Shown here in pieces: positions 4,433 to 37,002 of a stretch of 39,223 nt of DNA. The stretch lies in assembly GCA_964352165.1 (NCBI GenBank), contig CAYGRH010000001.1, positions 1 through 39,223 of the forward strand. The letters run 5' to 3'. Source of the DNA: an uncultured Hyphomicrobiaceae bacterium (GTDB lineage Bacteria; Pseudomonadota; Alphaproteobacteria; Rhizobiales; Hyphomicrobiaceae). The first letter of the stretch is position 1, and every line of letters begins with the position of its first letter. The notes beneath the pieces were generated by a model that ran no database searches, was not told the origin of the DNA, and worked only from the letters and a program-made list of their open reading frames with translations. Both the position numbers and the translations under genes were made by a program.

Positions 4433-5707
4433 ATGACATTCATTGAAAGTACATCCCCGTTCAATACGCTCGTAAATACGCCCAGAGATCCAGCCTTCTT
4501 AATTAAAAAGGTTGAAACGTATTACAGGGACCGGTTGAATAACACTTGGAACGGCGTCCATCCCATGAAAGGTAAGGCCCCAGGCCCATCCGATATCCAA
4601 GTCCGCACAAACGACTATCTCTGCTTAGCGTCTGACCCAAGAGTTATTGCCGCCGAAGTCAATCATTTGGAGGTTCATGGCCACGGTGAATCTGTGTCGA
4701 GAATATGGCTACATCACCAGAATGACATCTTACACCAATTCGAGGATAGGGTAGCTAATTTATTGGAAGCAGAAGCGGCCGTCCTTTGTAATTCAGGCTA
4801 TTGCGCTAATGTTGGCTTAATTCAATCTATTGTGGAACCTGGGTCTCCCGTCTTTATCGATATGAAAGCCCACGCATCGCTTTGGGAAGGTATAAAAAGT
4901 GCAGGTGCCAGGGCAATTCCGGTTCGCCATAATGATGCAGAGCACCTTTCCCGGCAAATCAAGAAAGAGGGGCAGGGAGTTATCGTTGTCGATGCCGTTT
5001 ATAGTATAGATGGAGATGTCTGCCCACTGAGAGAGTTTGTAGAGGTTTGCGAGCGTCATGGCTGCGCAATAATCGTGGATGAAACGCATTCATTCGGAAC
5101 ACAGGGGCGCTATGGCGCTGGGTTGACCGTCGCCCTAGGTCTTGCGGACCGAGTCCACTTTCGAACCATCGGGCTCTCTAAAGCGGTTCCATGTCGTGGG
5201 GGGCTGGTTATCTGCTCGCAACGGAATGCAGAGTTCCTCAGATACGAATCGCTCCCTGCGATTTTCAGCACGACGGTGCTCGGGCACGAAGTTGCGGCCT
5301 ATAACAAAGTGCTCGACATTTTTGCCAGCGAGCCGTGGCGGCGAAGCAAATTGCATAGCAACCACCGGCGGATACACGCAGCCCTAGATCAACTCGGTTA
5401 CAACGTGCAGGTTTCACGGTCCCAAATCATTGCGCTCGAGGCTGGGTCGATCTTGACAACGGTTAAGTTAAGAGACGCACTAGAACGGCGCGGGTTGTTT
5501 GGAGCCTTGTTTTTCCCGCCAGCGACCCCGGAAAAACGCTGCCTCATCCGCTTCACGGTTAATTGTGGATTGTCACCGGACGACATTAACCGAATCATAT
5601 CGATCTGTGCCGATGTGCGAACAGAAGTCGGCATGGAGCAATGGCCGTCCACGCGACGCAAGCATAAAGAAAACAGCCGTTCCAATTTAGGGGCTGTTGC
5701 GGCATAA
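4433..5707 (+). CDS. cqsA: CqsA/LqsA-type alpha-hydroxyketone autoinducer synthase (PLP-dependent, class I/II aminotransferase fold)
   Basis: AGGAGG lies 5 nt upstream of the ATG. Motifs TNDYLCLASDP, GYCANVGLIQSI, FIDMKAHASLWEGI, VVDAVYSIDG, VDETHSFGTQGRYGAGL, LPAIFSTTVL, SQIIALEAG and GLFGALFFPPATPEKRCLIRFTVN track V. cholerae CqsA segment by segment (from memory). Confidence 0.85.
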   Translation: MTFIESTSPFNTLVNTPRDPAFLIKKVETYYRDRLNNTWNGVHPMKGKAPGPSDIQVRTNDYLCLASDPRVIAAEVNHLEVHGHGESVSRIWLHHQNDILHQFEDRVANLLEAEAAVLCNSGYCANVGLIQSIVEPGSPVFIDMKAHASLWEGIKSAGARAIPVRHNDAEHLSRQIKKEGQGVIVVDAVYSIDGDVCPLREFVEVCERHGCAIIVDETHSFGTQGRYGAGLTVALGLADRVHFRTIGLSKAVPCRGGLVICSQRNAEFLRYESLPAIFSTTVLGHEVAAYNKVLDIFASEPWRRSKLHSNHRRIHAALDQLGYNVQVSRSQIIALEAGSILTTVKLRDALERRGLFGALFFPPATPEKRCLIRFTVNCGLSPDDINRIISICADVRTEVGMEQWPSTRRKHKENSRSNLGAVAA

Positions 5708-5714
5708 AATTCGG

Positions 5715-7082
5715 TTAGGCAACACATCTTGAGCGAGCCGATCCTTGCTGATCATTTGAACCGATTGGCGGCTCGCTTGGGACAACTGGTGGCAATTCGA
5801 TAATAATAGTTGTTCCCTCACCCAAAACAGTCTGGAAATGTATTGATCCTTGGAAGCTCTCCACAACATGCTTGCAGAATGCTAACCCAAGTCCGGTGCC
5901 TTCCATATATCGACCGCTTGTAGCAAAAGGAGTGAACACCGATTTCTGGATCTCCTTTGGAATGCCCGGGCCGTTGTCATTCACAATCAGGCTATTAACC
6001 CCGTCAATGCAATTGGTGGTTATAGTAATCATGTCACCTCTATCGACAGAAATCATCGCAAGGGAGTTCTTTAGGAGATTGAACAACACATGGACAAACA
6101 AAACCTTCGATCCAAAAAAATCAAAATCATGGTCAATATCCACGCGAACGGCCTCACGCTCACCTTTCCTAAAGGGATATCGAGCGATAGCATCCCGTAT
6201 TACGTCTCCAATTTTTGAGACCTGAAATTCCTCCTTGCTGAATCGGTCATGTTTTACCTTCAATAAGATCATATCAATCGCCATGCAGGCTCCTTCGGAA
6301 TGCTGCAAGATTCGAAGCAATGCTCCGCGGACGTCGCTATCGATCTCGACGAGTTCTTCAAGCTCAGATGAGGTCCCCTCGGCAGACAGGCCCGCCACCT
6401 TACTAATGACTTCATAGTCCTCTTGAATCCGCTCACAATCGAGTCTGATCCCAAGCAAAGGCGTCCTCATCTCATGAGCGATATTCGAAGCCAGCGCCTG
6501 GGCAGCGAGCAGTCTTTCGCCCGAAATTTGACGTTCACTATAGGTAAGAAAACCGATGGCAGAAATTGCGAACGCGTATATTGGGATACTCAAGAGAAAC
6601 GGCTCAGGTAGTGCCACCCATCCCTCCAGCGCAAGATATGCCGAAACGGCAGCCAAGTTTCCAACTACGAGAACGACCATCCCATTACGAAAGTCGTATA
6701 GTTGAACCACGAACAAAGTGGCAACCGTGGTAGACATTAACCAGGCATTGCTCCCATTATTCATCAAGAGCATGAATGTGAAGAAGAAGGGAAGACTGAA
6801 CAGGAGCGAAAAATACCCGAAGGCAAGATAGTACGGCTTAAGTTTTTCCGGCCACCAGCGCTCCGCTGCGAGGACCGAGCAAAAAAGCATACTGACTAAA
6901 CGAAGTTCGGGCGATTCGTATTCCTGCTTAAGCCAATATGTCCAAACCAAATAGTAGATGGGATGCGCACCCAATCCGAGAAGCCCGATGTAAGGCAGCT
7001 TGAACGGCGCGCGCTCGTGAAAACTGGCGTAAGATGCCTTAAGAGTTCCAATAGCCTTCTGGAGAAGTTGAAGTGGACTCAT
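5715..7082 (-). CDS. lqsS: Six-TM sensor histidine kinase of the CqsS/LqsS type, without a receiver domain
   Basis: Six hydrophobic segments in the first ~190 aa. H-box NIAHEMRTPLLGI and an HATPase region GPGIP...GTGLGLAFCKHVVESFQGSI. Convergent with cqsA, with only 7 nt between the stop codons. Confidence 0.75.
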   Translation of the reverse strand: MSPLQLLQKAIGTLKASYASFHERAPFKLPYIGLLGLGAHPIYYLVWTYWLKQEYESPELRLVSMLFCSVLAAERWWPEKLKPYYLAFGYFSLLFSLPFFFTFMLLMNNGSNAWLMSTTVATLFVVQLYDFRNGMVVLVVGNLAAVSAYLALEGWVALPEPFLLSIPIYAFAISAIGFLTYSERQISGERLLAAQALASNIAHEMRTPLLGIRLDCERIQEDYEVISKVAGLSAEGTSSELEELVEIDSDVRGALLRILQHSEGACMAIDMILLKVKHDRFSKEEFQVSKIGDVIRDAIARYPFRKGEREAVRVDIDHDFDFFGSKVLFVHVLFNLLKNSLAMISVDRGDMITITTNCIDGVNSLIVNDNGPGIPKEIQKSVFTPFATSGRYMEGTGLGLAFCKHVVESFQGSIHFQTVLGEGTTIIIELPPVVPSEPPIGSNDQQGSARSRCVA

Positions 7083-7218
7083 TTGAACCCTCGAATCAGT
7101 TCCTGGGACGCAATCCTTGCATCGGCCGGCCAGTTTGAGTTTCTAGGTGATTTAAATATCGGGCGCCCAAGCTGCAACCAGTCAGTTCTGGGTCAGTTCC
7201 AGCAAATGGATAGGGACT

Positions 7219-8169
7219 ATGCTGCCTCTTTATTACCCTACAACAGTTCTCGCGGTTGACGACGACAATGAATTTCTTGCGAGCTTTGAATACCGCTATC
7301 GGCGAAAATTCAAGTGTCATCTTACAAGCTCGCCCAGTGCTGCAATAGAACTCATAACCCAAGATGATAAAAAATTTCAAGAAAAGGTTCTGCTCAGCCA
7401 GTTTGGAGACATTGAGGGAGAAGAAGGCCCCAATATCGTTACACTGCGGCTATCGGAAATTGCTGCGATATCCGAGGCTCCTGACCACAGTGATAAAATA
7501 AGTGTTGTGGTAGTCGACTATGCCATGCCCGAAATGACAGGGGTAGAATTTTGCCGAGCTGTTGCCGATTGCAAGGTGAAGCGCCTGCTCTTGACAGGGA
7601 AAGCTGGATTGGAGCTTGCTGTGGACGCTTTCAACGAGGGGTTGATTGAATCTTTTGTTTTGAAGGGAGCTGCTGACGTTGGTTCAAAGATTGAGCGCGA
7701 AGTGAGAAGACTGCAGAACTTATTCTTTAAAGACGTAGCCGCCCCCATTACATCAATCAAAAATCTTCATGATTTTGAGTTCTTCCGGGACAAGGACTTT
7801 TGCCGACTCTTCGACAGACTGAAAAATGAGCTAAAAATATCTGAATACTTTCTTTCTGCATTTCCGCCAGGGTTAATAATCGTATCGCGTGATGGAAAAA
7901 AAAGGCTGCTACTTGTTTACAGTAAAGACATTATGCGCGCTCAATTCGAAACGGCGCTTCATGCAGAAGCGCCGTCGGAGTTATTGAGTATACTCGAAAG
8001 CAAGTCAGGAATTGTGGCATTTCCAGCTCCAATGGGGTTTTATAAAGAAACGTTTGCGGCGGTATGGGAAGACTACGTGTTTCCCTCGCAGCATGTGGCG
8101 GGCAGCGATCGGTGGTGGTGGACGATAGTCGAACCAATTGGTGATTTGAGCATGTTCAGGCCCCGCTGA
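7219..8169 (+). CDS. lqsR: LqsR-like response regulator: receiver domain with a large insertion plus an uncharacterised C-terminal domain
   Basis: VLAVDDDNEFL ... ISVVVVDYAMPEMTGVEF ... LLLTGKA gives the receiver signature, with the phospho-Asp near residue 100 after a ~40-aa insertion. There is no recognisable DNA-binding output. It is syntenic with the cqsA and lqsS homologues. Confidence 0.6.
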   Translation: MLPLYYPTTVLAVDDDNEFLASFEYRYRRKFKCHLTSSPSAAIELITQDDKKFQEKVLLSQFGDIEGEEGPNIVTLRLSEIAAISEAPDHSDKISVVVVDYAMPEMTGVEFCRAVADCKVKRLLLTGKAGLELAVDAFNEGLIESFVLKGAADVGSKIEREVRRLQNLFFKDVAAPITSIKNLHDFEFFRDKDFCRLFDRLKNELKISEYFLSAFPPGLIIVSRDGKKRLLLVYSKDIMRAQFETALHAEAPSELLSILESKSGIVAFPAPMGFYKETFAAVWEDYVFPSQHVAGSDRWWWTIVEPIGDLSMFRPR

Positions 8170-8219
8170 TATCTTTCGGAAGTAATCACCAAAATTGGAT
8201 AGTCCTGCTGCGTACAATA

Positions 8220-8507
8220 CTAATCAATTATACGCTGGCGGAGTGCGTAGGCAACTGCTTGTATCCTGGTTTTCACCTCGAGTTTTCGCTTGATGTTCTC
8301 GACATGATAATTGATGGTCTTAGGGCTAAGATTCAACTCTTGGCCAATTTGACTGTCGGACATACCCTCTGCAATCAGCGTCAGTATCGTAACTTCTCGG
8401 TTAGTGTAAATGCTTGCCGGAGTTTTATGAGGCATTGATTGTAACCTGATCACGCCGGTAACAGGGGTCCGCCCTGCAACATCCCTCAGTCGGTGATGCT
8501 GATTCAA
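8220..8507 (-). CDS. Small LuxR/GerE-type HTH regulator (HTH domain only)
   Basis: TNREVTILTLIAEGMSDSQIGQELNLSPKTINYHVENIKRKLEVKTRIQAVAYAL. Confidence 0.75.
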   Translation of the reverse strand: MNQHHRLRDVAGRTPVTGVIRLQSMPHKTPASIYTNREVTILTLIAEGMSDSQIGQELNLSPKTINYHVENIKRKLEVKTRIQAVAYALRQRIID

Positions 8508-8539
8508 TAAAGGACCGGTCTTGTCGCCACCAAGACACG

Positions 8540-8842
8540 CTAAATGCTTCGATAGAAGTGCTTGATCGGTATCTTGTAAATCTCCGCGATTGCAAAGAGC
8601 AACATTGGTGGCGTCCTATTAAAACCAACTTCTAGCCGGCGGAGCTCAAGTTCCGAAATGCCCAACTGTAATCCCAATTGAGAGGCCGGCATTCCGGCAG
8701 CTTCACGCAACCGCCGAATGCGGCGGCCAACGGCAAGGTCGATGGGGTGTAAAGCTGGTTCCGAGTGCTGAAAGTGCCGTGCTGCTATCTCAGACCTCTG
8801 ATCATCCGTGCCCGCGTTTGACAATGATCTGGCCCCCATCAT
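8540..8842 (-). CDS. XRE-family HTH regulator
   Basis: VGRRIRRLREAAGMPASQLGLQLGISELELRRLEVG. It sits 33 nt upstream of the LuxR-type gene on the same strand. Confidence 0.7.
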   Translation of the reverse strand: MMGARSLSNAGTDDQRSEIAARHFQHSEPALHPIDLAVGRRIRRLREAAGMPASQLGLQLGISELELRRLEVGFNRTPPMLLFAIAEIYKIPIKHFYRSI

Positions 8843-9061
8843 CGGGCGTTCCGAAGGAACGCTGATCGATTGTTTGTCAGCACTAGGTTGTCACCTAGTT
8901 CCTTGTGAAGCACAAGAGTGTTAGTAATCTAGCTTGATAATGGGCAGGTTGGGAACCTATATCTGCCCGTGGTTCTCGTTTTCCGCAACGTCCAGAAATC
9001 ATGGCGCTTTTTGGGTCGAACAACTAGGCCGTTGCTTGAGAATGAGCATTGTTGATTCAAA

Positions 9062-9316
9062 GTGGCGTTCGTTCAGACAGGCAAGGCCTTGACCATTTCG
9101 GCTGGTCCGACATCTAAATTGACAAAGATCGAAGAAGCAGTCTTGGAACTCTGCAGTGAGGGCTATTCTGATCTTGAGATCTCTCGGCAGCTTTATTCTT
9201 GCCCCCAAGTTGTGCGTAACATTTTTTTACGTATAAACAAAAAGTTAGGGGCAAAAAACAAGACGCATGCTGTCGCCTTATGGATTGGGAATCAGGACCC
9301 TATTTCAAAGCGATAA
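9062..9316 (+). CDS. Small LuxR/GerE-type HTH regulator (GTG start)
   Basis: LTKIEEAVLELCSEGYSDLEISRQLYSCPQVVRNIFLRINKKLGAKNKTHAVALWI. Confidence 0.6.
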   Translation: MAFVQTGKALTISAGPTSKLTKIEEAVLELCSEGYSDLEISRQLYSCPQVVRNIFLRINKKLGAKNKTHAVALWIGNQDPISKR

Positions 9317-9568
9317 GTTGGATTCGGAAGTTCCGTTCAAACGTGAGTGATCTTGGTGACGCGACAAGGCGGCAGCGGACTTCGCGCTGGGGACCCCCGT
9401 TTTTGCGTCCAGTTAGGATCTGATCCAATGCGCTTTGACTTAACCGTTATCAAGCGGCCCACCATGCTCCCATCTTTGCAAACCTACGGAAGTGCATCTG
9501 GCTTTTTCAAGCCTGCTGGAGAATCCCTGGCCTTGTACGAGGACAGAAAGGCATTTTGGTCTGAAATC

Positions 9569-9595
9569 ATAAGCTCAATAAGCTCAATAAGCTCG
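9569..9595. repeat. Three tandem copies of a 9-bp unit: ataagctca, ataagctca, ataagctcg
   Basis: Read directly from the sequence. Lies in the ~420-bp gap upstream of phyR. Confidence 0.9.
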
Positions 9596-9738
9596 ATTGC
9601 GATGCTGCGGTTCAAACGAGAAAGTGGGCTTGTCACAACATCGCAAATCGACAAGTTGTAGGGAGGCGGGTGCGACTTAATTTTCTTTAGTAACAAATTC
9701 CTTGCCCTGAAAAGGGGCCACGACTAGGAGATTGGACA

Positions 9739-10575
9739 ATGCAACTGAGTTCGGAATTGATGGCCTGGCTACCTAGCCTGCGTCGTTACGCCAGAGCGTT
9801 AACAGGTTCGCAGGACGCCGGTGATGATCTAGTCGTTAGGGCTTTAGAACGGCTTAGTATAGGTCCTCGTTTGGCCGACGACATTGCTCCGAAGATTGGT
9901 TTGTACAAAGTGGTCTCTGATGTTTGGAACAGTGTGATCGGGAAACACATTATGGATATGGCGGCCAAAGGAAGCTTGGCAGCGGCTGCTGACGAACGCA
10001 TCGGTCAACTCGAAGGGATACCCAGACAAGCCTTTTTACTCGTGGCTATGGAGAAGCTGACGCCGACCGAGGCGGCTATCGTACTTTCTCTTTCCGAGCA
10101 CGAATTTAAATCTGAACTCGCCAAAGCCCGGCACGACGTGGCCAGCCAAGTTGCAACCGATGTGCTTGTGATCGAAGATGAGCTTTTCATTGCTGCCGAT
10201 CTAGAGAAAATTCTCACTGATCTCGGCCACAATGTTGGTCCGGTAGCCCGGACCCATTCTCAAGCGGTTGCGGTCGCACGACGACAAAAGCCAGGTCTAA
10301 TAGTATCAGATATTCAGCTGGCTGATGACAGCAGTGGGATCGATGCTGTGCGTGATATTCTCGAATTTTCGTCAGCGCCAATAATCTTTGTCACATCTTA
10401 TCCAGAGTTATTGTTGACCGGGACACGACCCGAACCGATTTTTCTTATTAAGAAGCCGTTTTCAAGTGACGAAGTTCGTGGAGTGGTTTCTCAGGCTTTA
10501 TTTTTCCGACAGAATGCTCGCGCCTCGGATATTGCGGAAGGAGCGGTGCGATTATCGGGTCAGAGAAGTCACTGA
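9739..10575 (+). CDS. phyR: PhyR, the general-stress-response anti-anti-sigma response regulator (ECF-sigma-like N domain plus receiver)
   Basis: N terminus LPSLRRYARALTGSQDAGDDLVV and the region-4-like segment LTPTEAAIVLSL. Receiver VLVIEDELFIAADLEKIL...GLIVSDIQLADDSSGIDAV...IIFVTSYPE. RBS ctaggag. Confidence 0.9.
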   Translation: MQLSSELMAWLPSLRRYARALTGSQDAGDDLVVRALERLSIGPRLADDIAPKIGLYKVVSDVWNSVIGKHIMDMAAKGSLAAAADERIGQLEGIPRQAFLLVAMEKLTPTEAAIVLSLSEHEFKSELAKARHDVASQVATDVLVIEDELFIAADLEKILTDLGHNVGPVARTHSQAVAVARRQKPGLIVSDIQLADDSSGIDAVRDILEFSSAPIIFVTSYPELLLTGTRPEPIFLIKKPFSSDEVRGVVSQALFFRQNARASDIAEGAVRLSGQRSH

Positions 10576-10722
10576 TAGTCTGAATTGTCTGATTGTTTGT
10601 ATTTTTTAACTTTTCCGGCCGGCGTTGTTAGGTTTAACGAATTGTTTGCCATGCGAAGGCTCGGCTCTGCTCAGATTCGAACCATTTGCTTAGTCGCGGC
10701 ATCTGTTTCTCAATGAATTATT

Positions 10723-12510
10723 TTGAGGGGGATGCCAGTGGGCCACATGAGTCAATGCGTCAAGAGTTTGGTTGGGACCGCCAGCGACGATCATCGAGTA
10801 GATGCCGAAAACGATAGGGTCCAGAAGCTCCATGAGGTTCTTGAGATCCAAAAAAGTGCCTTGGATCACATGAGCCAAGGCCTGTGTCTCTATGATAGCC
10901 AACAACGGCTTGTTCTGTGCAATAGCCAGTTCAGAGACATGTACCAGCTCACCAACGAGCAAGTGCGCCCTGGAACATCGCTCGAGCAGATTTGTCGATA
11001 CCGAATCCAAAATGGAATTTTTGGTGAGCAGCATCCAGAGGCTTACATTCAGGAGCGAACGGCTCCCGTCTACGAATCGTCCAATCGTACACAAAAACTT
11101 TCCGACGGACGCACAATTCTTATAAGGCGTCGTATCACTCACGATGGCGGTTGGCTGACGACGCATGAGGATGTGACGGAACAATGCCTTGCCGAGGCCA
11201 GAATCACCTATATGGCAACGCACGACGCGTTGACTGGCCTCGCCAATCGGACGCTGCTGATGCAGAAGCTAAAAGATGTACTGCCGAGAGTCAAAAGAGG
11301 CGAAAAGGTTGCACTCCTTTGGCTTGACCTCGACCATTTTAAGAACGTGAACGATGCTTTTGGACACCCTATCGGCGACTCATTGTTATGCGAGGTGAGC
11401 CGGCGGATTTCTGCCGCCGTTCGTGATACCGATACGGCAGCCCGATTGAGCGGTGACGAATTTGCCGTCCTGCAAGTCCAAGTCCAGGAGCCGGCCGATT
11501 GTGCAGCGCTCGCGCGGCGTCTCATCAGCGTCGTAAGCGACCCCTACCTCATCGAAGGCAATCTGATCATGGTGGGTGTTAGCATCGGCATTGCCCTTAC
11601 GAGTGAGGCTGATTGCGAACCAGAGCAGCTAATGAAGTCGGCCGACCTTGCTCTCTACAGGGCCAAGAGCGACGGCCGCGGAACTTACCGATACTTTGCA
11701 GCCGAGATGGACGCTTCCATGCAGGCCCGCCGCGAAATGGAATCCGAACTCCGAGCTGCTCTCGTAAAGGAGGAGTTTGAGCTGTACTACCAACCGATCA
11801 TGAACTTAAAACTCATGCAGCCATGTGGTTTCGAGGCTCTTTTGCGATGGAACCACCCAAAGCGTGGGGTTGTGCCGCCCAACGACTTCATTCCCATAGC
11901 CGAGGAAACTGGCCTCATCATGCCAATAACCGAGTGGGTAATACGGACCGCTTGTAGGGAAGCGCAGTCCTGGTCTCGTCCATTGCGGGTTGCCGTAAAT
12001 GTATCTGCCGTACATTTCCGCTATGGCGACCCCGCCCTTTCCATTCGAAATAGTCTGCAAGATACCGGATTAACACCCTCACGCCTTGAAGTGGAAATTA
12101 CTGAATCTCTCCTCTTGGATAATTCAAACTCCGTACTCGACAAACTTATGAGTTTGAAGGAATTGGGTGTCCGGATATCCATGGATGATTTTGGGACTGG
12201 CTTTTCATCATTAAGCTATCTTGTTGATTTCCCATTCGACAAAATAAAAATTGATCGATCCTTTGTCAAAGGCCTCCCGAGCGAAAAGAGTTCGCTGGCT
12301 ATTCTTCGATCGATTGCAGGACTTGGGACGAGTTTAGGTATGGCAACCACTGCAGAGGGCGTGGAGACGCGCGAGCAACTTGACGTGGCGATAAAGGAGG
12401 GTTGCACCGAAGTTCAAGGCTACTACTTTAGCCGGCCGCAACCGATTTCCTTACTGGTAAGCGCACTTCGCGAATGCGATGAGAAGTGTCGGACGTTTAG
12501 CAGTTTATGA
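10723..12510 (+). CDS. PAS-GGDEF-EAL c-di-GMP turnover protein
   Basis: PAS-like N terminus, THDALTGLANR, RDTD-x5-SGDEF, EALLRW, DDFGTGFSSLSYL, KIDRSFV, EGVETREQ, QGYYFSRP. The start is ambiguous among 10723, 10732, 10738 and 10747. Confidence 0.9.
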   Translation: MRGMPVGHMSQCVKSLVGTASDDHRVDAENDRVQKLHEVLEIQKSALDHMSQGLCLYDSQQRLVLCNSQFRDMYQLTNEQVRPGTSLEQICRYRIQNGIFGEQHPEAYIQERTAPVYESSNRTQKLSDGRTILIRRRITHDGGWLTTHEDVTEQCLAEARITYMATHDALTGLANRTLLMQKLKDVLPRVKRGEKVALLWLDLDHFKNVNDAFGHPIGDSLLCEVSRRISAAVRDTDTAARLSGDEFAVLQVQVQEPADCAALARRLISVVSDPYLIEGNLIMVGVSIGIALTSEADCEPEQLMKSADLALYRAKSDGRGTYRYFAAEMDASMQARREMESELRAALVKEEFELYYQPIMNLKLMQPCGFEALLRWNHPKRGVVPPNDFIPIAEETGLIMPITEWVIRTACREAQSWSRPLRVAVNVSAVHFRYGDPALSIRNSLQDTGLTPSRLEVEITESLLLDNSNSVLDKLMSLKELGVRISMDDFGTGFSSLSYLVDFPFDKIKIDRSFVKGLPSEKSSLAILRSIAGLGTSLGMATTAEGVETREQLDVAIKEGCTEVQGYYFSRPQPISLLVSALRECDEKCRTFSSL

Positions 12511-12640
12511 GACGCAGTCGCGCTTGATATTGGTTGTATTGGGGCGTCCGGCTTATCGCGCCTGTGCCGCGCGCAGTTCTTGTTTCCTTTGAATCACTTC
12601 ATGGTTCTCCCTGAAGTTCTGCCTTCCTAAAGGATTTCTG

Positions 12641-13087
12641 ATGAATTTTTCCCCAGTCTGGACGGACATGTCGGGGGTCTCGGTGCAGCCCCGAATCGAG
12701 CAACACCCGACGTTCGAGCGCTTGATGGCGCGCATCCCCGCTTCTGAGCGCGAATCATTCACGCCAGTTCAACTTGCATTGCTGTCTTCCGCGAGTAAGC
12801 CACCACCGCCGCAGCACTGGATCGATTTTCGGGTTTCACTTCCTTTTTTTGGCACTCGTTTTTACGTAACGCTACTGAGCGGCAAAGAGCGGCGTTCAAT
12901 TCGACGAATTAAATCTGAGGGCCAAATTAGCGCGTCAAATCTGTCGGTGGCGTACCTTGGAGCCTTGCTTTTAATTGGAACGGTTTCGTTTCTAGCAATA
13001 GCCGTCTTCTTGTATGTATTAAAGTCTGGGCTTGGGATTGACTTCTATGAAGATCATTCATTCTTGCATGGACTGCTCCTCGAGTGA
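12641..13087 (+). CDS. Hypothetical membrane protein
   Basis: RBS aaagga. One clear TM segment, VAYLGALLLIGTVSFLAIAVFLYVL. No family recognised. Confidence 0.5.
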   Translation: MNFSPVWTDMSGVSVQPRIEQHPTFERLMARIPASERESFTPVQLALLSSASKPPPPQHWIDFRVSLPFFGTRFYVTLLSGKERRSIRRIKSEGQISASNLSVAYLGALLLIGTVSFLAIAVFLYVLKSGLGIDFYEDHSFLHGLLLE

Positions 13088-13412
13088 CTCATCTCTGGTC
13101 CACCTATTTAGCAAAACGATAAATTTCTTTATCGCCCGAACCTTGCGCTTCTTGTTTAGGTCCGCGTGCGATCCAAAACGAATCGGCGAATAAAGCAAGA
13201 TTTGTACGCCCATTAGAATGTAAAAAATTAGGGCGCGACGACAATATGACCAGCTTATTTACCATGATCGAACCCCGATAATAATTTTTCGAACTATACC
13301 TCATTCAAAGCATCTCATTATAGTTGCGACAGCCCACCCATCAAGCCAGATGACCCCTTATTGGAATTGATGTGCTTCGAAAGTAAATTGAGGAACGGAC
13401 TCGGAGGTGAAG

Positions 13413-14261
13413 ATGCAAGAAACAGTTGGAATGTTAAGTCGAGTTTTCGGAGATTCGCAAACTTCTAAGATTCAGTTTTCGGGTTCCCAATCGGATCTCA
13501 TACGTGCAGCGAATGCAGAGATTGAAAACTTTGGTGTTTTAGTGGCTGTCGTTTCAAGCATTCTGAATGAGTTGCGCGACAGTGGTGCGACGTCCATACC
13601 AGTTACTATTCGTCGCTTTATACCCTCCACTCCTGTCGTGCTTAAGCAGTTTTCAAAGTTGTCGAGACCAATTTCAACAACTGATATCGAGACCCACCTT
13701 GTTTATCTCGGCGCACAAATTTCGGTTGGCCAGTATCAACTGCGTCGGTCCCTGGAAGATCAAACAGACTTTCTATCTCATCTCGAAGTTGATCAGGTTT
13801 GCCATGCCTGGAGGGGCATTTGTGACCAGGTTCTTCTTGTAATGGCTGACCTTGATCTGCTTGCTGACGACATGGGTTGCGGGGCAATGGATCAAATGTG
13901 TCGGAAGGAACTAGAAGCGCATCTCGCAGACGCGCGAGACGGTGGCAGGCGACTGAGCTTGAGTCGTGATGTCGACTTCCAACGTTGGTCCCAGAACCGG
14001 CGCCATCGGCGGGTCTTGTTGAATGCCATGGGAACAGCTTATTGCATGGGGGAAGCGAGGCCAGTGCTCGTTACGGATGCATCTGTCGGCGGAGTTGGGC
14101 TTGATTTTGCGGAAGGTTTTCTTGAGGGGGAAACCATCAAGTTGGCGCTTCCCATGGGACGTGAGTTCGTCGGCAGGGTGGCGTGGTCTGCAGGCACTCG
14201 AGTAGGGGTTCAGTTTGATAAGGAGCTGGATCAGCATGACGTATTGTTTGATTTCGAGTGA
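13413..14261 (+). CDS. PilZ-domain protein with an uncharacterised ~200-aa N-terminal domain
   Basis: GGAGG lies 5 nt upstream of the ATG. The C terminus carries the c-di-GMP binding motifs RRHRR (RxxxR) and DASVGG (DxSxxG). Confidence 0.75.
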   Translation: MQETVGMLSRVFGDSQTSKIQFSGSQSDLIRAANAEIENFGVLVAVVSSILNELRDSGATSIPVTIRRFIPSTPVVLKQFSKLSRPISTTDIETHLVYLGAQISVGQYQLRRSLEDQTDFLSHLEVDQVCHAWRGICDQVLLVMADLDLLADDMGCGAMDQMCRKELEAHLADARDGGRRLSLSRDVDFQRWSQNRRHRRVLLNAMGTAYCMGEARPVLVTDASVGGVGLDFAEGFLEGETIKLALPMGREFVGRVAWSAGTRVGVQFDKELDQHDVLFDFE

Positions 14262-14440
14262 GGCAAGGGCTAACCCGGCTTTCTCACGGGGTGTCGCAGG
14301 AACGGCGTTTCTGCTGACGCTGGACCTCGTCTGATGCGGCGAGACAGGCCGAGCGCCATCGCTGCCACCAGTTCGGCAGCCCTTCCGGCCAGCGCTGATC
14401 CTCTTTCGTTGGTCCTCGGACTTCAGTGCGGCGTTGCCGC

Positions 14441-14700
14441 TCAGCCGCACAATCGTCGCGCGGCAATGGCAAACACGGCCGCATCGGGACAGCTCGATGC
14501 AAAGGCAAGCTTGACGCGCCGGACCGAGATCGTGACGCGAGCGCCGAGCTTCAAAAGCTTCAACCGGATCGTGCCGCAGGTCGCTACCGCCAGCCTGGTA
14601 CCGGCGAGCCCGACGCGGCGCACCGCGCACATCAGCACGTAGGCCAGTGACGGCAGCCAGAGCCGGAGTTGATTGGTGCGCATGGTGGGAACGGAAACAA
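14441..14700 (-). pseudogene. C-terminal remnant of an IS1380-family transposase
   Basis: TMRTNQLRLWLPSLAYVLMCAVRRVGLAGTRLAVATCGTIRLKLLKLGARVTISVRRVKLAFASSCPD matches the IS1380 C-terminal pattern as I recall it. A GC-rich patch at 14280-14740 sits inside AT-richer DNA. The N-terminal ~350 aa are missing. Confidence 0.55.
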
Positions 14701-14848
14701 AAGCTCGTGCCTCAAGAGTGAGCCCCGAAAGGCTCACCATTTGTGCTCCGATCTGTCACATGGATCGCTAGCCGTTCTTAGTGCCCGCTCGTCAACTGTG
14801 CACACGAACATAGCATCTTGACGTCCGCGGTGGCCTGGTCAAGCAACG

Positions 14849-14874
14849 CGAACTTGTTGTCCGATTTACCCGTT
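14849..14874 (+). promoter_or_regulatory. Candidate EcfG-type promoter: cGAAC-N17-CGTT
   Basis: GAAC at 14850-14853 and CGTT at 14871-14874 with 17 nt between, about 145 nt upstream of nepR. The published consensus is GGAAC-N16/17-CGTT, so the -35 element has one mismatch. Confidence 0.35.
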
Positions 14875-15018
14875 GTTTACCAGATCAGAATGAGTGTTTA
14901 CACTCTGCCGGATAATGATTCGAAGTAATGGTCATTCATCGCTCAGCGCTCGACCGTCTTTATGAATATTTGACCATTGAAAGTATATCGTCAATCAATT
15001 CAAGGAGCCGGGAGTGCC

Positions 15019-15213
15019 ATGATCGTTGACGAAGTTACAGCACCAGGACCGTGGGCAGACCAAGTGAATGATGATGACCCGATTATCGATGAAAACATCG
15101 AAGTCGAGCTCGGGAGAGTTCTGCGCGAAGCCTATGCTGATGTACTGGAGGAGCCAATCCCTGAAAGGTTTCACGAACTGATTAGGAAATTGAAGAATGA
15201 GACAGTGGCGTGA
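15019..15213 (+). CDS. nepR: NepR anti-sigma factor
   Basis: A 64-aa protein with the NepR signature LGRVLREAYADVLEEPIPERFHELIRKL. Its TGA overlaps the GTG of the ECF sigma gene. Confidence 0.8.
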   Translation: MIVDEVTAPGPWADQVNDDDPIIDENIEVELGRVLREAYADVLEEPIPERFHELIRKLKNETVA

Positions 15214-15845
15214 CCAAACATTCCATTCCATTCGATCAACTCCTCCTGTCCAAAGTTCCAAGTTTACGCGCCTATGCGCGTTCGCTTTGCCGAGATCCAA
15301 ACCTTGCCGATGACATCGTCCAGGATGCTTTGCTTGCGGCATGGACTAAAAGAGCTTCCCTGCGCGATCTGGATGCTATTAAGCCGTGGCTTTTGACAAT
15401 CGTACGAAACACGTACTTGGCGCACGTGCGCCGCTGCAGAAAAGAAGTCGAAGATGTGGATGGACGTCTTGCAGCCCGACAGTCCGCTCCCGCCACACAG
15501 GAAACGTCGAGCGAACTTAGCGATGTTAAAAGAGCTATGAACGCGCTCTCTGATGAAGAACGCGAAGCCCTGGTTTTGGTTTGCATTGATCAACTTACTT
15601 ATCAAGAAGCTGCGCAAGTATGCGCGTGCCCGGTTGGCACTATAAAAAGCAGAGTCAACAGAGCAAGGTCCCAACTTCTTGCCTACCTAAAGGACGACTC
15701 GTTTTATTTTACGTCCTCACGAGCCGCAAATGGGATTATCGAGGCTAGAGTATCCACTGCCGAGAAGCCGCAGAGGCGGCCAGAAACGCGGAACAAGAGT
15801 TTGAAGAGTTATAAACCTTTGCGTCCAGCGCAGGCTGTTGCATAA
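15210..15845 (+). CDS. ecfG: EcfG-type ECF sigma factor with a ~35-aa C-terminal extension
   Basis: Region 2 DIVQDALLAAWTK...KPWLLTIVRNTYLAHVRR, then KEVEDVDG. Region 4 EREALVLVCIDQLTYQEAAQVCACPVGTIKSRVNRARSQL. Confidence 0.9.
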   Translation: MTKHSIPFDQLLLSKVPSLRAYARSLCRDPNLADDIVQDALLAAWTKRASLRDLDAIKPWLLTIVRNTYLAHVRRCRKEVEDVDGRLAARQSAPATQETSSELSDVKRAMNALSDEEREALVLVCIDQLTYQEAAQVCACPVGTIKSRVNRARSQLLAYLKDDSFYFTSSRAANGIIEARVSTAEKPQRRPETRNKSLKSYKPLRPAQAVA

Positions 15846-15952
15846 AAACCCAGTGGGAAGCATTCGAAGAATGGCTGTACCCGTTCCGAGCTGTAGCCAG
15901 TTAGAAATGAAGATCGCAGTGTTGCGAGCTTCAGCGGCCGCACGATTCGAGA

Positions 15953-16876
15953 TCAACGAGCCGAGTTACCAAGCAGCAAAAACTTGAGAAAACTCCGCAT
16001 CTCGAATAATTTTTCAGTTACGCTCAAGCCACATCTACCCTTGCCGCTCCATGCGACACGACATCGAGCTGATTGGCCATTTGGCGTCAGGACCTCAGTT
16101 TCAGCGCCTTTCGATAGGTGAAAATTCGTAATCAGCCCGAACCCAGAATCCGAAATATCAAAGATTGTCGCGTTTTCTGAGCTCTCCTCTGTCTTAATGA
16201 TACAATTAAGACTGACCAGCATTCGCGGACTGGTTCTTTTCTCAACGAACGATGTAATATTTAGCTCGCCGTTCTCATTCGCCGATGGCCATCCGCCAAC
16301 CGCAGCTTCGACAAGGTCTGCATCGAAGTCGAAATGCACCCGCTCTCCACTGTTGTACTCAGCAACGTAGTACTGCGCTTCTATGCTTAGAAGTGCCCTG
16401 AGCGCCCGTTGTAACTGGCTGCAGGTGGTTCGCCACTGATTTGCTGCCTTTGCAAAATCATCTGACGAGTGTTCTATAGGCGCAGAGGGTGCGATGAGGT
16501 TAGTGACAAGCAGTGCGTTGCTTAGACTGTTCAAAAATTCGCCGACCATACCAGCAACATTACGCGGAAGCCCACACGACTTAAAGCGGCTGAGCACTGC
16601 ATTCTGCGGCCCAATATGGCTACTACCGATTGCTAAGACTTGGGAGCAGGCCCGACTTGTGAAGCAGTTGCGATTTACTCCAAAGTTCAGAAGGCTCGTC
16701 ATCGCCGTTACAATAGGCACAAGCGTATATAATGCCGCGCGGGCCTCACGCACCTCTTGGCTCAAAACCAGACGTATCGGGGACACCCCATTAGAGATGC
16801 AGAGTGAATTCTGGACGATGCCCAGATCTATCGACTCGTGCTCATCGAGCTCAAACACGGAAATTGGTGCCATCAT
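15953..16876 (-). CDS. PilZ-domain protein, distant paralogue of 13413-14261
   Basis: RTSPR (RxxxR) and DISDSG (DxSxxG) near the C terminus. The N-domain segment AANQWRTTCSQLQRALRAL parallels VCHAWRGICDQVLLVMADL in the other protein. Confidence 0.75.
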   Translation of the reverse strand: MMAPISVFELDEHESIDLGIVQNSLCISNGVSPIRLVLSQEVREARAALYTLVPIVTAMTSLLNFGVNRNCFTSRACSQVLAIGSSHIGPQNAVLSRFKSCGLPRNVAGMVGEFLNSLSNALLVTNLIAPSAPIEHSSDDFAKAANQWRTTCSQLQRALRALLSIEAQYYVAEYNSGERVHFDFDADLVEAAVGGWPSANENGELNITSFVEKRTSPRMLVSLNCIIKTEESSENATIFDISDSGFGLITNFHLSKGAETEVLTPNGQSARCRVAWSGKGRCGLSVTEKLFEMRSFLKFLLLGNSAR

Positions 16877-16991
16877 ACCTGATACCCGCTAATTACCATT
16901 CATTGGAAAACTCAATTGTTTCCAAGATATCGTCGGGGTTGGACCGCGGAGGTGCCAATCTTGTTTTTTTGTTGGAAATCGCAAGTAGACA

Positions 16992-17465
16992 TCACTTTGC
17001 ATCTTTTGATTCTTTACCAAGCACTGTGATGGGGAGCTTAAGCTTCAATGTCGCACTGTTCGGTTTTTTTGTGTTGAATGACCCGGGTTGCCGAAGGACT
17101 AACTCATAAGTCTGATCATGGGATGGTGCGGAACCGCCGACCCACTGGATGTGGAAAACTTGCCGACTAATGGCTCGCAACTGAACCGCGCTGGGTACAA
17201 CCAGAATTCTTTCGCCGTTTTTTTCGAATGCCGAATGTCCAGTTTCAGGAGCGGTCGATGCCAACTGTACAATCAAAAACATATCTTCTTCGGTCGGGTT
17301 CTCAATAGTCACCCTCGAAAAGGCGGATATTTGCGTCCCTGCAGCTTGAGAATCTCTATTAATCCATCTTAATTCACCTGCTACCGCTATTGAGATCAGC
17401 GCGGAAGAATGCTCCGCAAACGCGACAATTAATATGACGAGCGCATACCAACCGACTGCGCGCAT
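16992..17465 (-). CDS. Secreted hypothetical protein; the pattern is loosely reminiscent of a PapD-like chaperone N domain
   Basis: GGAG RBS and signal-like N terminus MRAVGWYALVILIVAFA. A beta-rich pattern follows: VTIENPTEEDMFLIVQL...VVPSAVQLRAISRQVFHIQWVG...YELVLRQ. The functional call is tentative. Confidence 0.5.
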   Translation of the reverse strand: MRAVGWYALVILIVAFAEHSSALISIAVAGELRWINRDSQAAGTQISAFSRVTIENPTEEDMFLIVQLASTAPETGHSAFEKNGERILVVPSAVQLRAISRQVFHIQWVGGSAPSHDQTYELVLRQPGSFNTKKPNSATLKLKLPITVLGKESKDAK

Positions 17466-17753
17466 ACGTCTCCGATTGCTTCCGGAGGCGGACGGCTGTC
17501 GCATCAAACATCTGAACTTGGCTCGGTGCGCTATCGACAACGGACTGGCTCCAGCAAGAAAACGAAATCTCTTGCCAATGAGATGCACTCCGAGCCCAAA
17601 GGGTTCGCAACGTTCCAACTATTTTTCGCAATCTCAAGGTGTGGAGGAGATTTAGAGAAAAGTAGAAACGTTCACGAAAATTAAATAAACTTTTGGCGTA
17701 TGCTGGAAGAATTCCGATTCGAATAGTTTGTGCCTTGCGGCCGGAGCTTTACG

Positions 17754-20348
17754 ATGCCTAACAGAATTGGCAATGCCCATCGCCATCTCAGCTTGCTCGG
17801 GCTCTACCCGACGATTTTCGTCGTGGTTTTACTCATTGGGATCGCGTGGACAACGGCTGTCAATCGCGGCATTCAGTCAGCTCACGAAGAAATGTTGTTG
17901 CTAGAAGGAAAACTCAAGAACGTCGGTGTAACGCTCTCGCATAATGTGGCGCGAACGTCGAGCGAGCTCGACACGCTACTCCAATTTATGCGAGCTATGC
18001 GAAAGTCGAAAAGTACCGAGGTTCCGTGGTCTGAAATAGTGTCGGAAGACTACACGCTTAACCGGCATACAGTACAAATTGCTGTCATTGCAAAAGATGG
18101 AATGATGGTGACTAGCACAAAGATGCTCAACCCACAGAAGCCAGTTGACTTAAGCGATCGGGAGCATTATCGCGTCCACCTTCATGGGAGCAGCGACCAG
18201 CTTTTTATTAGTAAACCCGTAATTGGTCGCGCCTCCAAAAAATGGAGTGTTCAATACACGCGCCCCCTTTACGACTCTGCCGGTGCTTTCGACGGGGCAA
18301 TTGTTGTTTCCTTCGATCCGGATAAATTCACGCAAATGTATGAAAAATTAGACCTTGGAAATGGTGGCGTTATTATCGTCGGGACCGACTCTATAGTGCG
18401 CGCAGCCTCTGGACTTTTTTCGAGTTCTCTAGGCTCCAGAATTGAAATGTCGGGACATGGAGTCAAGTTCTTGCAATCTGACGGGGTCAAATCGATCGAT
18501 TCTGATCAGAATCGCTTCAAGGATATCGTGTACGTGACGCAGGATGTCGAGGGATACCCGCTGAAAGTTATTGTCGCTGCAGAGGCAAGGATATCGTTCT
18601 TTTCGATTGGCAATGCAATATATTTGCTAGTTGCTGCGGTTTTCTCGGTTATTGCGATCTATATTGGTGTAAGCAATTACTCGCATCGTCGAAGGGAGCT
18701 GGAGTTATTGGGTGAAAGCAATGCGGCCCTGATTGACAAGGGTGTCGCAGAAGCAGCCAACAAAACAAAAGGCGAGTTCTTAGCAATAATGAGCCACGAA
18801 ATTCGTACACCGCTAAATGGTGTTCTAGGATCACTGGACCTCATTTCCAGCCACAAACTTCCAGCAGAAGCTATGAAAAGCTTGGATGTTGCAAAGTCTT
18901 CGAGCGAATATCTGCTCTCACTTATCGACGACATACTCGTTTATTCAAAACTCGAAGCCGGAAAAATTGAACTCGATAAACAGCCGTTCTCACTCCTTAA
19001 GTTCATAGGGGATCTAGAGGTTTTCTTTCGGCCGCTTACGGAGTCGACGGATAACAAGTTTTGCGTTCAAATATTGGGTGAAATTCCGGGTCAAGTTTTA
19101 GGCGACCAGTTCAGGCTCCGGCAGGTTTTGCTCAATTTACTAGGGAATGCCAACAAGTTTACTAGCGCGGGGAGTATTCAACTGACTGTTCGCTCGCAAA
19201 GTAGCGCTGATCAAACTTCTGCGAAAATTCAGTTCTCGATAGAAGACACAGGGGTAGGAATACCCATCGATAAGCAAGCCTTGGTCTTCGAAAAATTTCA
19301 ATCTTTGGACGCAAGCTATTCGAGAAGATCGGATGGTACTGGTCTTGGCCTCGCCATTTGTAACAGTATAATGCGTGCCATGGGTAGTCGCTTGAACTTA
19401 GTCAGCGAATATGGTGTCGGAAGCACATTCTTTTTCGAAGTCGAATTACCCAAAGCTGAAAATGAAAATTTAATGCTTCAAGCGGTTCGAAAAGCCATTT
19501 CTAAAACCGACTTCAGAACATTAAGTATTCTGCTGGCGGAAGACAATGAAACTAACGCCTACATAGCGACAGAGTGCTTGGTTCGCGAGGGACATTCGGT
19601 GGTCCGCGCTACAGACGGAGTCCAAGCCGTTGCTCGGGCAAACGCGGTGCAATACGATCTCATCTTGATGGATGTATCTATGCCGAACATGGATGGCTTG
19701 ACGGCATCACTAGCGATCCGGTCTCATCATGGTCCCAATCAATTTACACCAATCGTCGCCCTGACCGCGCATGCAGAATCTGGAACGGAGGAAAAGATCA
19801 GAGAGTGTGGGATGAACGCATATTTGACGAAGCCCATTCGGCGAGAACGGCTGTTGATTGCAGTTCAAGAATTTAGTGTTCAATCTGCGGTCAACTTGTT
19901 GCGGACGAATAACGCCCTGATTGCTTCAAATGATTCTCAAGGGGACCTATCGATGTGCGTTAGTGATTGTGAATTAGAATCGGATGGCCTTGCTGCCTTC
20001 CTCCGCGATAGGGAAATCGATGAGTCATCTCCGTTATTCAGAATTTTTATAACCGAGATGGATACAAAGAGAACCCTTCTTGATCAAGCTATAGCCGAAA
20101 AGAATATTAAAGCGGTCGGGCGCATCGCTCATGCTGTTTTGGGGAGTTCATCAACAATCGGTGCCGCCAAGCTCGCCGCGCATTGCAGGCTTTTGGAAGC
20201 CGAATGTCGCAGTCCTCGCCAAGTCGACTGGCGCCTTGCTATATCGACTCTGCACGCGATCGACAGCACTGTTAACGATTTCAAGGCCATCGTTGCCACG
20301 ATGTCGGAACGAAAGAAAGTCGAGGTAGCAACTGTTTCCGCCGCCTAG
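17754..20348 (+). CDS. Hybrid sensor histidine kinase: TM, Cache-like periplasmic domain, TM, HisKA, HATPase, REC, Hpt
   Basis: DREHYRVHL...ISKPVIGRASKKWSVQYTRPLYD (Cache-like). FLAIMSHEIRTPLNGV (H-box). GTGLGLAICNSIM. ILLAEDNETN...LILMDVSMPNMDG (REC). HAVLGSSSTIGAAKL (Hpt). Confidence 0.9.
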   Translation: MPNRIGNAHRHLSLLGLYPTIFVVVLLIGIAWTTAVNRGIQSAHEEMLLLEGKLKNVGVTLSHNVARTSSELDTLLQFMRAMRKSKSTEVPWSEIVSEDYTLNRHTVQIAVIAKDGMMVTSTKMLNPQKPVDLSDREHYRVHLHGSSDQLFISKPVIGRASKKWSVQYTRPLYDSAGAFDGAIVVSFDPDKFTQMYEKLDLGNGGVIIVGTDSIVRAASGLFSSSLGSRIEMSGHGVKFLQSDGVKSIDSDQNRFKDIVYVTQDVEGYPLKVIVAAEARISFFSIGNAIYLLVAAVFSVIAIYIGVSNYSHRRRELELLGESNAALIDKGVAEAANKTKGEFLAIMSHEIRTPLNGVLGSLDLISSHKLPAEAMKSLDVAKSSSEYLLSLIDDILVYSKLEAGKIELDKQPFSLLKFIGDLEVFFRPLTESTDNKFCVQILGEIPGQVLGDQFRLRQVLLNLLGNANKFTSAGSIQLTVRSQSSADQTSAKIQFSIEDTGVGIPIDKQALVFEKFQSLDASYSRRSDGTGLGLAICNSIMRAMGSRLNLVSEYGVGSTFFFEVELPKAENENLMLQAVRKAISKTDFRTLSILLAEDNETNAYIATECLVREGHSVVRATDGVQAVARANAVQYDLILMDVSMPNMDGLTASLAIRSHHGPNQFTPIVALTAHAESGTEEKIRECGMNAYLTKPIRRERLLIAVQEFSVQSAVNLLRTNNALIASNDSQGDLSMCVSDCELESDGLAAFLRDREIDESSPLFRIFITEMDTKRTLLDQAIAEKNIKAVGRIAHAVLGSSSTIGAAKLAAHCRLLEAECRSPRQVDWRLAISTLHAIDSTVNDFKAIVATMSERKKVEVATVSAA

Positions 20349-20427
20349 GGTCCCAGTGGCTAAAGTATTCCTCAACGCGCTCCTTGTCGCCCGGAACCCG
20401 CACAAACCGCGATAGGTGCTGCGAAAA

Positions 20428-23379: not shown

Positions 23380-23415
23380 TAGAGTTTGTATTTTTGGGAG
23401 TTGACGAGAATTTAC

Positions 23416-36931: not shown

Positions 36932-37002
36932 GCCGAACGCGTCCGAACGAAGGAGCCCCAATTTTGGGCTCCTTCAATTTTGCAAGGCTTGAGGGACAAC
37001 CG

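Follow-up and report, generated by a model that had tools for sequence, protein, structure and literature searches.

A PhyR-NepR-EcfG partner switch lies within a stretch of 39,223 nt from an uncultured Hyphomicrobiaceae bacterium (contig CAYGRH010000001.1), and it is probably a functional switch of a distinct lineage of PhyR, one that is linked to genes for cyclic di-GMP (c-di-GMP) signalling and has been captured on an island of low guanine-plus-cytosine (GC) content. The whole of this one 39-kb contig, which is the host DNA that was covered, is called the window below. PhyR, NepR and EcfG form the master stress regulator of the Alphaproteobacteria, and cross-talk between this regulator and other global signals is poorly understood. 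The evidence for our reading comes from the identities of the genes, the integrity of their motifs, the conserved linkage of phyR with c-di-GMP genes, a derived gene order, purifying selection and the mobile context of the locus.

The switch genes

The three genes of the switch are all on the same strand.

9739-10575, + strand: phyR, encoding an anti-anti-sigma response regulator (PF22029 PhyR_sigma2, PF22233 PhyR_sigma-like and PF00072 receiver)
15019-15213, + strand: nepR, encoding an anti-sigma factor of 64 amino acids (PF18557, 41.1 bits against a cut-off of 25.7)
15210-15845, + strand: ecfG, encoding an EcfG-type extracytoplasmic function (ECF) sigma factor (Pfam sigma-70 regions 2 and 4)

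An earlier note on this DNA had located these genes and those between them, and open reading frames and Pfam matches bear out each position from phyR to ecfG, including a remnant of an IS1380 insertion sequence (IS). The note had also credited all three proteins with textbook signatures, and these are present. PhyR scores 293.8 bits on the NCBIfam model NF006623 ('PhyR family', cut-off 240), and in an alignment with 13 relatives the receiver residues D191 (in LIVSDIQL), T219 (FVTSYP) and K239 (LIKKPF) are invariant. The probable start of nepR is the ATG at 15019, an identical 64-residue call being made in L001, and the motif LREAYADVLEEPIPERFHELI aligns with other NepR proteins. EcfG carries the motif KEVEDVDG; it scores 158.7 bits against a curated cut-off of 219 for the individual NCBIfam PRK sigma models, which are narrow. 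The GTG start of ecfG overlaps the stop codon of nepR (GTGA), so that nepR lies directly upstream of ecfG. In this arrangement, in the complete receiver of PhyR, and in the three families and their domain signatures, the locus resembles the classical PhyR-NepR-EcfG system (ECF15) of Methylobacterium extorquens, Sphingomonas melonis Fr1 and Caulobacter crescentus (PhyR-NepR-SigT).

The locus departs from the classical system in other respects. Instead of being divergent from its partners and next to them, the usual layout in general stress response (GSR) loci, phyR lies upstream of nepR in the same orientation; the distance, previously put at about 4.4 kb, was measured as 4443 bp. EcfG does have the extended C-terminal tail that had been noticed, although the excess is about 28 residues rather than about 35: 49 residues follow region 4, whereas 77 reference EcfGs have a median of 21 there. 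The tail is basic (isoelectric point 10.6) and is also found, with a similar C-terminal end, in three sister islands (L003, L004 and L005), which are 72-80% identical in nucleotide sequence to the window over positions 4256-20568 (blastn). Finally, unlike the classical system, the locus has no HWE/HisKA_2 kinase nearby and is carried on a low-GC island, and a consensus promoter, GGAAC-N16/17-CGTT, was not found.

A perfect tandem repeat of 9 bp, ATAAGCTCA, is present in 2.9 copies at 9569-9594, about 150 bp upstream of phyR. Four biofilm metagenome runs cover the window sequence evenly and at low depth, and one 9-bp unit of this repeat is absent from the contigs of two of them, which indicates that the copy number varies in the population.

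The c-di-GMP genes and the IS1380 remnant

Three genes and a transposase fragment lie between phyR and nepR.

10723-12510, + strand: c-di-GMP enzyme with PAS_7, GGDEF and EAL domains (Pfam)
12641-13087, + strand: membrane protein of 148 amino acids, with one C-terminal hydrophobic segment (residues 100-135)
13413-14261, + strand (alternative start 13407): PilZ c-di-GMP receptor, the first of two PilZ proteins (PF07238)
14300-14845, - strand: IS1380-family remnant with an open reading frame at 14441-14740 (PF13701, NF033539, GC content and BLAST to Rhizobium)

In the predicted enzyme, the GGDEF motif reads SGDEF and is accompanied by an RxxD I-site, and the EAL motifs (EAL, N, ExxE, DDFGTG, KID, EGVE and QGY) are intact and conserved across orthologues. 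The first PilZ protein carries RxxxR (RRHRR) and DxSxxG (DASVGG) motifs. It also has a helical N-terminal domain of about 190 residues to which no fold was assigned; the AlphaFold2 model, built on an alignment of eight sequences, has a mean pLDDT of 50 and is confident for the PilZ barrel only. Searches of PDB with profiles of this protein and of the 148-residue membrane protein gave no match. The membrane protein has no match in Pfam or NCBIfam either; its family comprises 891 representative clusters at E <= 1e-3 and has no Pfam model. Members are found beside a CHASE-only protein and beside ABC and HlyD genes of type I secretion (L097 and L098). The protein was considered as a marker for the phyR-linked block of genes described below, and rejected because the family is broad and occurs in these other contexts.

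The open reading frame of the IS1380 remnant matches positions 348-430 of 435 in PF13701 and 352-419 of 419 in NF033539. It keeps the last 85 or so of about 420-435 transposase residues, and so falls short of an IS1380 element with a full DDE transposase and terminal inverted repeats. The DNA is 75-77% identical to IS1380 transposase genes of Rhizobium and stands out as 0.55 kb of 63% GC inside an island of about 50% GC. In the sister islands its place is taken by an unrelated spacer of about 0.63 kb, homology restarting just upstream of nepR. Since gene order is unchanged in these islands, which do not have the IS, the remnant is a scar and not the maker of that order: the insertion and its partial deletion are late and specific to the window copy.

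Linkage of phyR with c-di-GMP genes

The closest relatives of the window PhyR were traced to their own contigs and the neighbourhoods compared. What recurs is a block consisting of phyR, a gene for a PAS_7-GGDEF-EAL protein, a gene for a membrane protein of about 150 residues and, usually, a PilZ gene. The relatives fall into five locus types: the islands (the window and L003-L005); L006; L007-L009 with L090, L103 and L105; L091 and L092; and L093 and L094. In each of them 150-280 bp separate phyR from the start of the GGDEF-EAL gene, and both this gene and the membrane-protein gene are found downstream of phyR in every member of the clade examined, with PilZ in most. Contigs of matching length pair P0003 with P0130, P0007 with P0123 and P0124 with P0133, which suggests that additional contigs carry the block as well. 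The sister islands, in which PhyR is 86% identical to that of the window, have the gene order of the window island. The more distant relatives, from uncultured Alphaproteobacteria, share with it the succession of phyR, GGDEF-EAL, membrane protein and PilZ (the last except in L006), and differ from it in being chromosomal, at 59-60% GC; their PhyR and GGDEF-EAL proteins are 47-58% and 49-65% identical, respectively, to those of the window. In L006, L091/L092 and L093/L094, a kinase of PAS-HWE or CHASE-HWE type and an ecfG-nepR pair lie divergently upstream of phyR, whereas in the L007/L090 type the four-gene block lies beside mreBCD and nepR-ecfG is absent within 10 kb. Alphaproteobacteria bacterium BRH_c36 belongs to a 90% cluster of this last type, and the three loci recovered by a scan of metagenomes with a PilZ profile were all of L007 type. 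The PilZ protein of L091 and L093 is a short, single-domain form. In L091 (5473-7992), two phyR paralogues flank a single ecfG-nepR pair; only the second has the c-di-GMP block downstream and falls in the block-linked clade.

For background, we used 80 PhyR loci among the matches listed in a genome scan with a PhyR profile. These are mostly generic PhyRs, and no genome of the block-bearing clade is among the matches listed. In 70 of the 80, ecfG is on the opposite strand, 0.4-0.65 kb upstream of phyR, which agrees with the expectation that phyR is usually divergent and adjacent. ecfG is co-oriented and downstream in a further four (Sphingomonas, at 0.4-0.7 kb) and in two of Rhizobium type (at 3.4-3.6 kb, with unrelated genes between). 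A GGDEF-EAL gene immediately after phyR was seen in none of these 80 loci. In a neighbour-joining tree of 96 PhyRs, those linked to the block make up a clade of 13 from which all reference PhyRs are excluded; the island PhyR is nested in this clade, and the basal branches are loci that combine classical nepR-ecfG, an HWE kinase and the block. Comparison with L006 gives identities of 59% for EcfG, 68% for NepR, 57% for PhyR and 65% for the GGDEF-EAL protein, as against 40-47% for EcfG (where one was found) and 44-51% for PhyR in the other genomes listed. The similar values of EcfG, NepR and PhyR towards L006 point to an origin of all parts of the island in the same lineage.

Because they are present in chromosomal loci with classical, divergent nepR-ecfG and an HWE kinase, the c-di-GMP genes are ancestral neighbours of phyR in this clade. 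What is derived on the island is the relocation of nepR-ecfG to a position downstream of PilZ, together with the loss of the HWE kinase. The earlier note had taken the switch to be split by c-di-GMP genes and by the IS remnant, and neither half of that claim survives the comparison. If a classical, adjacent phyR/nepR-ecfG locus had been split on the mobile element by the insertion of c-di-GMP genes and an IS, it would be understandable that c-di-GMP genes do lie between phyR and nepR and that the IS1380 remnant abuts the region upstream of nepR. Such a history is nevertheless very improbable. Chromosomal, classical loci also have the GGDEF-EAL and membrane-protein genes behind phyR, and L091/L092 and L093/L094 have PilZ there too, so that nepR-ecfG would have been the part that moved; the genes in between are orthologous to the chromosomal ones, at 49-65% identity and with conserved motifs; and the sister islands show the same order without IS1380. 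To suppose instead that the chromosomal blocks are later gains from the island runs against the tree, which places the island PhyR inside the clade and not at its base. In the literature that was searched, we found no report of a linkage between PhyR and c-di-GMP genes, or of a PhyR switch on an integrative and conjugative element.

Selection and integrity

The ratio of nonsynonymous to synonymous substitution rates (dN/dS) was taken between the window and L003, where dS is close to 1; it is 0.064 for phyR, 0.069 for the GGDEF-EAL gene, 0.08 for the 148-residue membrane protein, 0.10 for the first PilZ gene and 0.18 for both nepR and ecfG. Other island genes give 0.07-0.25, and all island genes lie within 0.06-0.25, which corresponds to purifying selection. 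All reading frames of the switch and of the c-di-GMP genes are intact. From the low dN/dS at this dS, and from the intact catalytic and binding motifs, we conclude that the module is maintained by selection and is not decaying.

This bears directly on the suggestion that the locus was captured and is now no more than a non-functional relic in decay. The IS scar in the region upstream of nepR would be in keeping with decay, as would the want of a recognizable EcfG promoter and of a cognate kinase. Decay is hardly to be reconciled, however, with intact reading frames throughout, with dN/dS of 0.06-0.25 for two island lineages that have diverged to a dS of about 1, or with the state of the catalytic and binding motifs, and we give it very little credence.

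The same values have been considered in connection with another proposal, namely that PhyR of this clade mainly serves a c-di-GMP module, its sigma-like domain having some other partner, for example the N-terminal domain of PilZ, with nepR-ecfG on the island an independent unit. phyR and the GGDEF-EAL gene do evolve more slowly (dN/dS 0.06-0.07) than nepR and ecfG (0.18), and the L007/L090 loci have the block beside mreBCD with neither nepR nor ecfG within 10 kb. Yet PhyR scores above the curated threshold of its family and has a well conserved sigma-like domain, three of the five locus types keep nepR-ecfG beside phyR, and on the island phyR and the nepR-ecfG that has been kept belong to one lineage; the N-terminal domain of PilZ, for its part, was not modelled with confidence by AlphaFold2, and the PDB profile search gave no match. 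The proposal is thus improbable, and we return to a PhyR that would act on NepR and EcfG in a c-di-GMP-linked lineage.

The island and its mobile surroundings

The following features define the genomic context of the switch.

1-54, + strand: 3' part of a tRNA-Phe gene (anticodon GAA; 3' 51 nt; Rfam RF00005, 35 bits)
2656-3195, - strand: ArdA antirestriction protein, in backbone of 59% GC (PF07275)
4256-24550: low-GC (about 49%) signalling island carrying the switch (GC profile and blastn to sister islands)
30479-31090, - strand: serine recombinase (resolvase), in the backbone (PF00239)
36865-38616, + strand: TraG/VirD4 type IV coupling protein, in the backbone (PF02534, PF12696 and PF10412)

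The switch sits in horizontally acquired DNA, and this is supported by an island of about 20 kb and 49% GC, set in a flanking backbone of 59% GC (GC profile) that contains the tRNA-Phe fragment, ArdA, the resolvase and TraG. A tRNA neighbour, deviant GC content and genes for conjugation and maintenance (ArdA, resolvase, TraG) are traits of genomic islands, and a tyrosine integrase lies immediately to the left of the island in two of the three sister contigs. The description of the switch as cargo on mobile DNA is upheld by these observations. The left border of the island is taken as the start of homology to the sister islands. The right border is approximate: the low-GC DNA is taken to end ahead of 24559-26289, where part of a type I secretion system has been left isolated. 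This fragment is 80% identical to L102, a type I secretion locus that is not related to the island; it retains the final 45 bp of a giant RTX-like gene together with a gene for an outer-membrane factor, the ABC and HlyD genes being absent.

The tRNA-Phe fragment covers positions 22-71 of the 71 of the RF00005 model, its 5' end being cut by the end of the contig, and ARAGORN did not call it because the gene is incomplete. It is likely that this gene is the integration site of the surrounding element, which suggests an element spanning the region and integrated at tRNA-Phe. A second copy of the tRNA-Phe 3' end was looked for across the window and none was found, and there is no tRNA in the loci of the sister islands. 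Taken together, the arrangement looks like an island of 49% GC nested in a tRNA-Phe-associated conjugative element that runs off the contig. The contig ends without overlap, and circularity is not supported. TraG is less than 40% identical to any protein in the plasmid database, and in a search of that database for near-identity neither the locus nor the backbone was matched. Between 31590 and 36365 the backbone has long open reading frames (263, 379, 313 and 245 amino acids) with no Pfam or NCBIfam match, amongst which there could be a relaxase or a component of a type IV secretion system.

It is conceivable that this switch is the only general-stress module of the host, located in acquired DNA as on some plasmids of the Roseobacter group. 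Complete, classical modules do serve as the annotated GSR locus on accessory replicons of Dinoroseobacter shibae (plasmid NC_009956.1, 153 kb) and Rhodobacteraceae bacterium S2214 (plasmid of 78 kb), and the strong purifying selection on all three genes would suit an indispensable role. We consider this unlikely, though. Almost all Alphaproteobacteria have a chromosomal module, and all 80 of the listed reference loci are of chromosomal type; the GC content of the island is 10 points away from that of its surroundings; and without an HWE kinase of its own the island would seem to depend on kinases of the host, whose normal partner is a resident PhyR. The Roseobacter-group plasmids differ, moreover, in having the classical layout of kinase, ecfG and nepR with phyR, surrounded by stress effectors (Dps, CsbD), on non-mobilizable replicons that have neither a c-di-GMP block nor quorum-sensing genes. 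An example of a paralogous, extra module is known in RsiB2 of Sinorhizobium meliloti.

Promoters, kinases and other points of doubt

A number of observations weigh against a functional, c-di-GMP-linked switch captured on an island. The clade on which the linkage rests comprises five locus types and about 13 PhyRs, all metagenomic, and the tree is a simple neighbour-joining tree without support values. PilZ is missing from the L006 locus type, and members of the family of the 148-residue membrane protein also occur away from phyR (L097 and L098), so that this protein is not a dedicated PhyR partner. In the window no integrase homologue, no relaxase and no clean att direct repeats for the island were found, and contigs of the four metagenome runs, at their even, low depth, show no joint lacking the island. 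As had been remarked before, there is no HWE/HisKA_2 kinase in the window, either by Pfam, which assigns both of its kinases to the HisKA/HATPase_c type, or by six-frame tblastn (E<0.1) with four HWE kinases from related loci. The exact EcfG-type promoter GGAAC-N16/17-CGTT does not occur in the window, against an expectation of 0.68 sites, and the near-matches found by relaxed scans of the window and its relatives are weak and poorly conserved.

The near-match closest to the switch is the following.

14849-14874, + strand: weak candidate EcfG-type promoter, CGAAC-N17-CGTT (one mismatch), 145 bp upstream of nepR

It is not conserved, the sister islands reading GGAC...CTTT at this place. GGTAC-N17-CGTT is found upstream of the gene for a hybrid sensor kinase in the window, and L003-L005 have an exact GGAAC-N17-CGTT at the counterpart. 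This site falls in a short conserved patch, 17137-17270 in the window and 15409-15542 in L003, within an otherwise poorly conserved open reading frame of the minus strand, about 0.5 kb upstream of the hybrid-kinase gene. No clear EcfG motif was seen in the phyR-nepR intergenic regions of the block-bearing clade, and a generic scan for promoters and terminators gave matches at chance level. With no exact site and only weak, non-conserved ones in the window, autoregulation and targets of a regulon are unsupported.

Other genes of the island

The island is a package of signalling genes. Its left arm is a complete set for alpha-hydroxyketone quorum sensing of Lqs/Cqs type at 4427-8169, conserved in the sister islands L003 and L004; small regulators follow before phyR, and two further signalling genes lie beyond ecfG.

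4427-5707, + strand: alpha-hydroxyketone autoinducer synthase of CqsA/LqsA type (NCBIfam NF005526, 471 bits against a cut-off of 428)
5715-7082, - strand: membrane histidine kinase (HisKA-like and HATPase_c, Pfam) in the position of LqsS/CqsS
7219-8169, + strand: LqsR-like response regulator (PDB 6sy9_A, E = 1e-33, residues 4-268; receiver domain)
8220-8507, - strand: small helix-turn-helix (HTH) regulator of LuxR/GerE type
8540-8842, - strand: small HTH regulator of XRE type
9062-9316, + strand: small HTH regulator of LuxR type
15953-16876, - strand: second PilZ protein, convergent with ecfG (PF07238; motifs RTSPR and DISDSG)
Between the second PilZ gene and the hybrid kinase: hypothetical membrane open reading frame
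17730-20348, + strand: hybrid sensor kinase with dCache, HisKA, HATPase_c, REC and Hpt domains (Pfam)

The Lqs/Cqs-type set resembles the Lqs system of Legionella and the Cqs system of Vibrio in having a synthase above the curated CqsA/LqsA cut-off, an adjacent membrane kinase and an LqsR-like regulator; it differs from them in being alphaproteobacterial, on a mobile island and physically linked to a PhyR switch. The kinase at 5715-7082 has at least three hydrophobic segments and is not of HWE/HisKA_2 type; it is called LqsS-like from its position and architecture. The structure 6sy9, for which the depositor's name is only 'Response regulator', is one that we take to be LqsR of Legionella. The HTH regulators, the PhyR block, nepR-ecfG, the second PilZ gene, the membrane open reading frame and the hybrid kinase are common to the sister islands, the hybrid kinase being kept in all of them (dN/dS 0.094). 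The second PilZ protein is a distant paralogue of the first (BLASTP and alignment) in which the RxxxR and DxSxxG motifs are kept. The right arm of the island, at 21593-24147, encodes PxpB/PxpC-like carboxyltransferase subunits (CT_C_D and CT_A_B) and a TauE/SafE exporter, and has no evident connection with the signalling genes.

A proposed history and mechanism

The ancestral, chromosomal layout would have had an HWE kinase, ecfG and nepR running leftwards, and phyR, GGDEF-EAL, the membrane protein and PilZ running rightwards. A copy of such a locus may then have been captured on the low-GC island of about 20 kb, together with the Lqs-like set, the HTH regulators, the second PilZ gene and the hybrid kinase. 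On the island, nepR-ecfG would have been relocated to a place beyond PilZ, co-oriented with it, with loss of the HWE kinase. In the window copy, IS1380 would later have inserted into the spacer between PilZ and nepR and been mostly deleted.

The protein interactions and the phosphodonor may be predicted along the following lines. A kinase would phosphorylate the receiver aspartate of PhyR, the candidate donors being an HWE/HisKA_2 kinase of the host or the Hpt domain of the hybrid kinase (for the kinase wiring of the PhyR system, see Lori et al. 2018, PMC5964349). Going by family membership, the sigma-like domain of phosphorylated PhyR would bind and sequester NepR, and the EcfG so freed would redirect RNA polymerase. 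The PAS-GGDEF-EAL enzyme and the PilZ receptors might couple the stress response to levels of c-di-GMP, in a direction that we do not assign. Functional coupling of this kind is suggested by the conserved linkage, which is a matter of gene neighbourhood. A more far-reaching idea, which also takes in quorum sensing, is that the general stress response has been hard-wired to c-di-GMP in one lineage and turned into a portable hub with quorum sensing, the Hpt domain replacing the HWE kinase as phosphodonor. We put this forward tentatively, as a somewhat doubtful extension; if it were true, the island would supply its recipient with one self-contained circuit in which stress, cell density and c-di-GMP are joined.

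The linkage of phyR with c-di-GMP genes, which extends through the clade and appears to be under selection, is to our mind the most interesting and most testable outcome, and it provides a testable hypothesis for cross-talk between stress and lifestyle. The island version indicates that the switch can move horizontally, that its gene order is plastic and that it can persist without the usual class of kinase, so that the phosphodonor of PhyR becomes a question in its own right. Should the host have a resident copy besides that of the island, the latter would amount to a natural experiment in which the insulation of a partner switch is set against its titration.

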